Origin: an uncultured Planctomycetia bacterium
GTDB lineage: Bacteria; Omnitrophota; Gorgyraeia; 2-01-FULL-45-10
NCBI GenBank assembly: GCA_964352425.1
Contig: CAYGRZ010000003.1
Location: 21,077 to 85,076, forward strand
Direction: 5' to 3'
DNA: 64,000 nt
Content: a report on this DNA, generated by a model with database tools, continued
The DNA itself: not shown here

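Follow-up and report, generated by a model that had tools for sequence, protein, structure and literature searches.

The stretch from 1 to 46237 is probably the main envelope-glycan locus, Wzx/Wzy-dependent and most likely making the O-antigen and outer core of lipopolysaccharide (LPS). Gene families, synteny, intein anatomy and the extension of the locus to the left were computed, whereas the substrates, the order of the steps, the roles of ligase and polymerase and the LPS destination are what I infer. The list of open reading frames in all six frames shows an unbroken run of minus-strand genes over the entire window, in which 42 complete genes were delimited between 854 and 46237, in addition to a gene at 1-668 that is truncated at the left edge; independent gene calls on matching contigs served to refine several start codons. 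A Pfam scan of every product reproduces the gene inventory of the original prediction almost item by item, with three B12-binding/radical-SAM proteins (B12-rSAM), six class-I SAM methyltransferases, two Wzx flippases, one Wzy_C protein, two GT2 and two PMT_2-type GT-C glycosyltransferases, an MBOAT gene adjoining an SGNH gene, a CE4 deacetylase, a NodU-type carbamoyltransferase, WecB, two DegT aminotransferases, an LbH, a GNAT and a GFO/Idh/MocA protein, two NDP-sugar dehydrogenases and the rml genes. Two counts have to be lowered: GT4 genes and 'other' SDR genes are present, but three of each were found where four of each had been proposed. The locus genes are tightly packed in one series, the largest gaps being 219 and 136 nt, and Rfam and tRNA scans of the window gave no match. 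That the genes are co-directional is correct, but this is not specific to the locus, as the housekeeping genes to its right share the same strand:

Right of the locus, minus strand: housekeeping genes, namely two GGDEF genes, an ABC ATPase, accD-like, asnB, dnaJ, dnaK, grpE, hrcA and hflX

The two Polysacc_synt (Wzx) proteins match their family with E=5e-23 and 5e-32 and have 12-14 transmembrane (TM) segments. The Wzy_C protein (9328-10698) has 10 TM segments and scores just above the Pfam cutoff of a domain that does not separate Wzy, WaaL and PglL. An initiating transferase of the WecA or WbaP type was not found by Pfam in the window. The original prediction had directed the search for such a gene, and for wzz, to the region beyond the left edge, and the first of the two was indeed located there, on a 26.5-kb short-read contig (L041/L045, ERR3804374_151767) that is 100% identical to window 1-16574 and reaches 9.8 kb further. 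In this extension, a PF00953 transferase of the WecA type lies about 3.7 kb outside the window, but no Wzz-family match is present. The genes read on the contig, all on the same strand as the locus, are:

L041/L045, same strand, at the window edge: rest of the edge gene, a 618-aa GT4 fused to a DUF218/SanA-like domain
L041/L045, same strand, after the GT4-DUF218 gene: GT4, 391 aa
L041/L045, same strand, after the 391-aa GT4: SDR, 322 aa
L041/L045, same strand, about 3.7 kb past the edge: PF00953 transferase, 347 aa, best NCBIfam model WecA at 115 bits, below the equivalog cutoff
L041/L045, same strand, next after the PF00953 gene: second Wzy_C protein, 409 aa
L041/L045, same strand: Glyco_transf_9 (GT9), 362 aa, best family LPS heptosyltransferase II at 121.5 bits against a cutoff of 134.6
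L041/L045, same strand, after the Glyco_transf_9 gene: three GT2 genes

Because the contig continues past the window edge, the locus must measure at least about 56 kb, and its far side looks like ligase and core-oligosaccharide genes. No Wzz, Wza or Wzc was found by Pfam in the window or in the 9.8-kb extension (for the latter from a precomputed Pfam list), and no lipid A (lpx) or kdo genes were found in either.

To the right, the locus is flanked by a gene at 46352-48547, whose 731-aa product weakly matches the NCBIfam models of LptD and of CT351-type outer-membrane β-barrels, and whose sole match among solved structures is LptD (7OMM, E=8.6e-6). In species-representative genomes this protein has relatives at 36 loci, the best with 77% identity; two thirds of them (24) are labelled Candidatus Omnitrophota or carry the name of a Candidatus taxon (Ca. 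Makaraimicrobium, Ca. Tantalella), and the other 12 are labelled 'uncultured Planctomycetia'. By these relatives the window is assigned to Omnitrophota. A tblastn comparison of all window proteins with these relatives, covering about 10 kb of flank in each, shows a kept order of dnaJ ... accD-like, ABC ATPase, GGDEF, GGDEF and the lptD-like gene, followed by a head block (36909-46237) that consists of ugd, a short RmlC-like cupin, rmlA, rmlB, rmlD, the HexNAc dehydrogenase, a TviC-like epimerase and UXS. The order of this head block is retained at 50-87% identity in about 20 genomes. Beyond UXS the content varies by genome, with a B12-rSAM gene next in one and a DegT gene in others, and with a carbamoyltransferase at 37-44% identity somewhere beyond the head block in several relatives. 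A conserved sugar-nucleotide head block with a variable tail of lower GC is the usual signature of a surface-polysaccharide locus. The fixed anchor, kept phylum-wide (lptD-like, ugd, rml, HexNAc dehydrogenase, UXS), together with its hypervariable tail, offers a way to compare surface diversity from one metagenome to another. In a 2026 preprint, Omnitrophota are described as having a hypervariable O-antigen/polysaccharide cassette that includes an O-antigen ligase, AlgI/AlgJ and heptosyltransferase II.

The head block would supply activated sugars. Ugd would produce UDP-GlcA, from which UXS (36909-37850, matching human UXS1 with E=3e-102) would form UDP-Xyl, and RmlA, RmlB, the short RmlC-like cupin and RmlD would lead to dTDP-L-Rha. 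RmlB (458 bits) and RmlD (320 bits) both exceed their NCBIfam equivalog cutoffs; RmlA, strong at 258 bits, falls below its cutoff because it is a short form of 246 aa. The 148-aa cupin reaches 43 bits against an RmlC cutoff of 156, and is nearer to the 'dTDP sugar isomerase' 3EJK (2e-21) and to RmlC structures (1e-8) than to QdtA (2e-3). A route to Qui3NAc or Fuc3NAc, with the cupin as QdtA/FdtA isomerase next to a QdtB-like aminotransferase, is less likely, as the cupin is closer to the RmlC type than to QdtA, the RmlD gene adjoins, and the acetyltransferase of the locus is far closer to WlbB than to QdtC. The intein-bearing dehydrogenase of the WecC/WbpA class and the TviC-like 4-epimerase would provide UDP-HexNAc uronic acids. 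In its spliced form of 434 aa, the dehydrogenase best matches UDP-ManNAc dehydrogenases (4R16, Cap5O) and belongs to the WecC/Cap5O/TviB class, within which GlcNAc, ManNAc and GlcNAc3NAc are substrate options that sequence does not separate; the best match of the SDR encoded by the adjoining gene is TviC.

Past the head block, the first variable cassette (GFO, WbpE-like, WlbB-like, deacetylase-fold and GNAT proteins) may build a 2,3-diamino-2,3-dideoxy-hexose or -hexuronic acid. The locus had been proposed to hold the complete WbpA/B/E/D/I set for a diacetamido-mannuronic acid, and all five enzyme classes are in fact present. The DegT enzyme falls within the sugar 3-aminotransferase clade and matches WbpE structures over its full length (E=5e-89), and the LbH enzyme has 3MQG/3MQH, which I take to be WlbB, as its top PDB match (E=1.7e-62, 214 bits). 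The GFO protein, however, is not WbpB-like: among its 28 PDB matches at 1e-10 there is no WbpB or WlbA structure, and its best NCBIfam match, below cutoff, is an archaeal UDP-GlcNAc 3-dehydrogenase, although it could still perform the WbpB/WlbA step. The WecB-family enzyme scores above its NCBIfam cutoff, but is encoded 10 kb away in another cassette, an rSAM-SDR-WecB-SDR group that is conserved as a unit in L046, a related locus from a second Omnitrophota genome. With the LbH and DegT matches set against the GFO mismatch and the distant WecB, a 2,3-diacetamido sugar is well supported, whereas a manno-uronate as end product and a Wbp-type order of steps are not supported. The locus thus shares the five classes with the UDP-ManNAc3NAcA pathway of Pseudomonas aeruginosa and Bordetella (WbpA-B-E-D-I, WlbA-D), including an acetyltransferase close to WlbB and an aminotransferase of the WbpE clade, but differs from it by a 3-dehydrogenase nearer to UDP-GlcNAc 3-dehydrogenase, by a 2-epimerase that belongs to another cassette, and by an extra deacetylase-fold protein and a GNAT protein inside the cassette. 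Such a 3-dehydrogenase would fit the archaeal order of steps, in which the C-3 chemistry comes before the C-6 oxidation.

The two extra proteins are encoded between the GFO and LbH genes. One has a GNAT domain; the other (34640-35650) is Pfam-less and has more than 1300 homologs with an invariant Asp/Glu/His set. A sequence-only search of the PDB returned just one marginal deacetylase match for the latter (E=0.32), and in a structure search its model (pLDDT 95.5) resembles polysaccharide deacetylases, including ArnD. That the GNAT and deacetylase-fold 341-aa proteins are paralogs was rejected, as they share no meaningful similarity. The pair may deacetylate and reacylate the diamino sugar, which would amount to an N-acyl swap; both genes are absent from L046, in keeping with an optional tailoring role. 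A further amino or deoxy sugar would be built and decorated by the second variable cassette:

Second variable cassette, minus strand: 4,6-dehydratase-like SDR, LegC/PseC-like aminotransferase, WecB, uronate-type SDR, B12-radical-SAM, methyltransferases and carbamoyltransferase

Nonulosonic-acid synthesis, to which LegB/LegC/PseC-like matches could point, was rejected, as the Pfam results contain no NeuB-type synthase and no CMP-transferase.

Each of the three B12-rSAM proteins combines an N-terminal cobalamin-binding domain with a CxxxCxxC radical SAM core, and they are mutually 27-32% identical. None reaches the cutoff of a characterised NCBIfam subfamily, the best matches being the Sden_1168 P-methyltransferase family, HpnJ and BchE. 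A phosphonate glycan, as the P-methyltransferase-family match of one of them might imply, was rejected, since no PEP-mutase-type gene is among the Pfam results. For the enzyme at 25332-26723, the nearest solved structure is AprD4 (E=1e-22), presumably the sugar diol-dehydratase of apramycin biosynthesis. Its family counts at least 2847 homologs, and in both phyla checked, Omnitrophota and Chloroflexi, it is encoded in a glycan locus, near DegT and SDR genes. Class B radical SAM enzymes that act on sugars are known from aminoglycoside pathways (GenK, GenD1 and the related AprD4). The enzymes of the locus are like these in domain layout and in their neighbours (aminotransferases, SDRs, N/O-methyltransferases and a carbamoyltransferase), but they have no equivalog-level match to characterised members, and they belong to a cell-envelope polysaccharide locus and not to an antibiotic cluster. 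Plausible candidates for the reaction of the 25332-26723 enzyme are the C-methylation of an amino sugar and its radical deoxygenation. The literature was searched for B12-radical-SAM enzymes of O-antigen or polysaccharide loci with practically no relevant result, and the six methyltransferases gave only generic matches to NCBIfam subfamilies.

Part of the tailoring may take place in the periplasm. The GT2 protein at 7019-7897 has C-terminal TM helices and matches models of ArnC, AglJ and Dol-P-hexose synthase, which, taken together with the two GT-C proteins, points to polyprenyl-phosphate sugars as donors for transfer in the periplasm. A GT2-CE4-MT-GT-C module at 15913-19706 (MT, methyltransferase) is conserved in L046. 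The presence of a uronate-decarboxylase-like SDR and a DegT enzyme, followed by GT2, CE4 and GT-C (PMT_2) in the order of ArnC, ArnD and ArnT, recalls the Arn (PmrHFIJKLM) pathway for lipid A aminoarabinose. However, the Pfam results contain no formyltransferase domain or protein and no ArnE/F or SMR-type protein, the CE4 gene has no match to the ArnD model, a methyltransferase gene is inserted between CE4 and GT-C, and the similarity to ArnC is weak (E=4e-12). The MBOAT and SGNH genes have the standard two-part layout of O-acetylation.

Combining these parts, repeat units would be assembled on undecaprenyl phosphate, initiated by the WecA-type transferase just left of the window and lengthened by the GT4 enzymes. 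Wzx would flip the unit across the membrane, the Wzy_C protein at 9328-10698 would polymerise it, and the second Wzy_C protein, which directly adjoins the heptosyltransferase-like GT9, would ligate the polymer to the lipid A-core. In the periplasm, the two pairs of GT2 and GT-C could add side-branch or amino-sugar residues from polyprenyl-phosphate donors, and the MBOAT/SGNH pair could O-acetylate the polymer. It is the left extension with its ligase- and core-type genes, together with the lptD-like flank, that makes LPS the most likely product. Because Wzz, Wza, Wzc, lpx and kdo genes were not seen, the LPS destination rests on the LptD-like, GT9-like and Wzy_C matches, all of them weak or just below curated cutoffs.

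Two observations sit uneasily with a single LPS polymer: Wzy_C also occurs in PglL-type protein O-oligosaccharyltransferases, from which ligases and polymerases are inseparable by sequence, and two Wzx flippases exceed the need of one repeat-unit pathway. It is possible, if rather doubtful, that two polymers are made side by side, an O-antigen and a second Wzx-dependent glycan (ECA-like, capsule-like or a protein-linked O-glycan), each with its own flippase; in the same reading, and with the same reserve, one Wzy_C protein would be a polymerase or ligase and the other a PglL-type oligosaccharyltransferase. The two Wzx proteins are divergent (23% identical) and the two Wzy_C proteins are divided between window and extension; Wzx 30458-31864 forms one unit with the diamino-sugar cassette and a GT4 in L046, and the other Wzx belongs to the distal block of low GC, as do the candidate Wzy, MBOAT and SGNH. 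A second polymer is nonetheless difficult to reconcile with the single initiating phosphoglycosyl transferase in about 56 kb, with the lack of any Wza, Wzc, Wzz or ABC transporter to serve it in the Pfam results for window and extension, and with the arrangement of all genes in one packed series. A product other than LPS, such as an exopolysaccharide, a capsule or the glycan of a general protein O-glycosylation system, with the adjacency of lptD due to chance of gene order, is distinctly less probable than two polymers. The LptD, heptosyltransferase II and WecA matches, weak or below curated cutoffs as they are, leave room for it, PEP-CTERM/EPS-associated GT families are the best matches of several GT4 proteins and an EPS flippase model is that of the Wzx genes, and PMT_2 proteins can be protein mannosyltransferases. 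However, the adjacency of the lptD-like gene and the sugar-nucleotide block is kept throughout the phylum, GT9 (PF01075), whose gene here adjoins a Wzy_C/ligase-like one, is a family characteristic of LPS-core heptosyltransferases, and neither Wza, Wzc nor PEP-CTERM/exosortase genes were found in the window or the extension.

The locus has much in common with the Wzx/Wzy O-antigen (rfb/wb*) clusters: rmlABD with an RmlC-like gene, ugd, glycosyltransferases, Wzx, a candidate Wzy, an initiator of the WecA type and a ligase-like gene are shared, as is a variable content of low GC beside conserved flanks. With at least 56 kb and more than 50 genes, however, it is several times larger than the usual 10-25 kb, no Wzz was found, and it carries three B12-radical-SAM enzymes, six methyltransferases, a carbamoyltransferase and two GT-C proteins. 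The O-antigen loci of Enterobacteria have flanks of the gnd/galF or hemH/gsk type, whereas the present locus is anchored to an lptD-like gene. A very long and nearly unidirectional O-antigen locus is known in Leptospira (rfb). The present locus is unusual in its size of at least about 56 kb, in how many tailoring genes it has, in its class-B radical SAM enzymes, in being anchored to an lptD-like gene and in the intein. In logic and parts it is a Wzx/Wzy-dependent O-antigen-type locus, and these features do not place it outside the known kinds.

Current understanding is not overturned; the known O-antigen logic is extended to a little-studied phylum, and the locus is of use chiefly for enzyme discovery and as a marker of surface diversity in an uncultivated lineage. 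The glycan-locus B12-radical-SAM family, the Pfam-less deacetylase-fold family with its more than 1300 members and the GT2-CE4-MT-GT-C module are uncharacterised families that occur here in an interpretable context. The cells of the uncultivated phylum Omnitrophota are mostly very small and presumably host-associated or predatory, and given this lifestyle their surface glycans probably govern contacts with other cells.

The HexNAc dehydrogenase gene (38879-41647, 922 aa) encodes the three UDPG_MGDP_dh domains, of which the central and C-terminal ones are split by about 490 residues that match Intein_splicing and LAGLIDADG_3. At the insertion site, the intein-free ortholog of the closest relative (L005) reads ...GPGVGGHCIPVDP..., and the protein encoded in the window reads ...GPGVGGH/CLGKDE...VLTHN/CIPVDP..., where slashes mark the junctions. 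The insert is delimited as follows:

39371-40834, minus strand: intein, residues 272-759 of the precursor, 488 aa, junctions set by the intein-free ortholog

Cys1 is C272, block B reads T366-P-K-H369, the C-terminus is H758-N759 with C760 at position +1, two LAGLIDADG motifs are present (FIGYYLSEGC and LLMGILRGDGG), and both Pfam and TIGR intein models match. By this set of motifs the insert is a class 1 intein with a LAGLIDADG homing endonuclease, for which splicing and homing are predicted. In the alignment, the +1 Cys falls on the Cys of the GGxC motif, presumably the catalytic cysteine in this dehydrogenase family, and as the insertion is placed exactly there, the precursor should be inactive until splicing. 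I would offer only as a tentative idea that the intein gates the supply of HexNAc uronates after translation, and that the B12-rSAM enzymes C-methylate, or deoxygenate in an AprD4-like manner, nucleotide-activated amino sugars destined for LPS. Such radical sugar chemistry is not known to have been characterised outside antibiotic pathways.

The intein also bears on the continuity of the assembly. Between genes, GC spans 0.36 to 0.57, with steps near 13 kb, 20-22 kb, 39-41 kb and 46 kb, and GC3 decreases from about 0.8 in the housekeeping genes to 0.68-0.78 in the genes at 36909-46237, 0.50-0.70 mid-locus and 0.38-0.53 in the genes of the distal end (854-13769); the dehydrogenase gene averages a lower 0.62 because of its intein. 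The 46-kb stretch could be a chimeric metagenomic assembly in which glycan loci of different genomes are joined at these GC transitions, a possibility that the original prediction had itself named as a refutation. Separately assembled contigs from the runs ERR3804373 and ERR3804374, retrieved by exact-protein look-up, match the window at 99.5-100% identity (blastn) over 1-16574, 16583-30242, 30015-38667, 41096-46828 and 44839-47503, and thus bridge the steps near 13 kb, 20-22 kb and 46 kb, besides the continuation of 9.8 kb past the window. These short-read contigs probably stem from the same population, possibly from the same reads as the window, and so test the assembler and not the biology. 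Two intervals are unbridged. The first, 16575-16582, comprises 8 nt within one intact 492-aa GT-C open reading frame. The second, 38668-41095, is without a second assembly because look-ups of the 922-aa dehydrogenase and the TviC-like SDR gave no exact match (nor did DnaK as delimited), but its low GC is explained by the in-frame intein, which has canonical junctions and a GC of 0.41 as compared to 0.54 in the exteins. On both sides of these points, moreover, the gene order agrees with that of related genomes, and chimerism is very improbable.

Orthologs of the dehydrogenase are intein-free in all of the about 15 species-level relatives examined. The intein, used alone as a database query, has homologs with 35-43% identity that occupy this same site in nucleotide-sugar dehydrogenases of Nanoarchaeota, Anaerolineales, a cyanobacterium, Limnocylindria and Thermoplasmatota; a homolog in Daviesbacteria is more distant (29% identity), and a fragment that is 92% identical was also returned. 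A near-ortholog (P0022), seen at the same syntenic position in two other samples, holds only a mini-intein of 222 aa. UDP-glucose dehydrogenase is listed among the known metabolic-enzyme hosts of inteins (PMC2874743). The intein described here agrees with the known inteins of nucleotide-sugar dehydrogenases in its site just before the GGxC Cys and in LAGLIDADG, Cys1, TxxH, HN and +1 Cys, and differs from them in its host, an Omnitrophota paralog of the WecC/WbpA class in a probable LPS locus. It is a new occurrence of a known intein allele and not a new kind of element. The full, mini and empty alleles of one gene in close relatives may record stages of the intein homing cycle.

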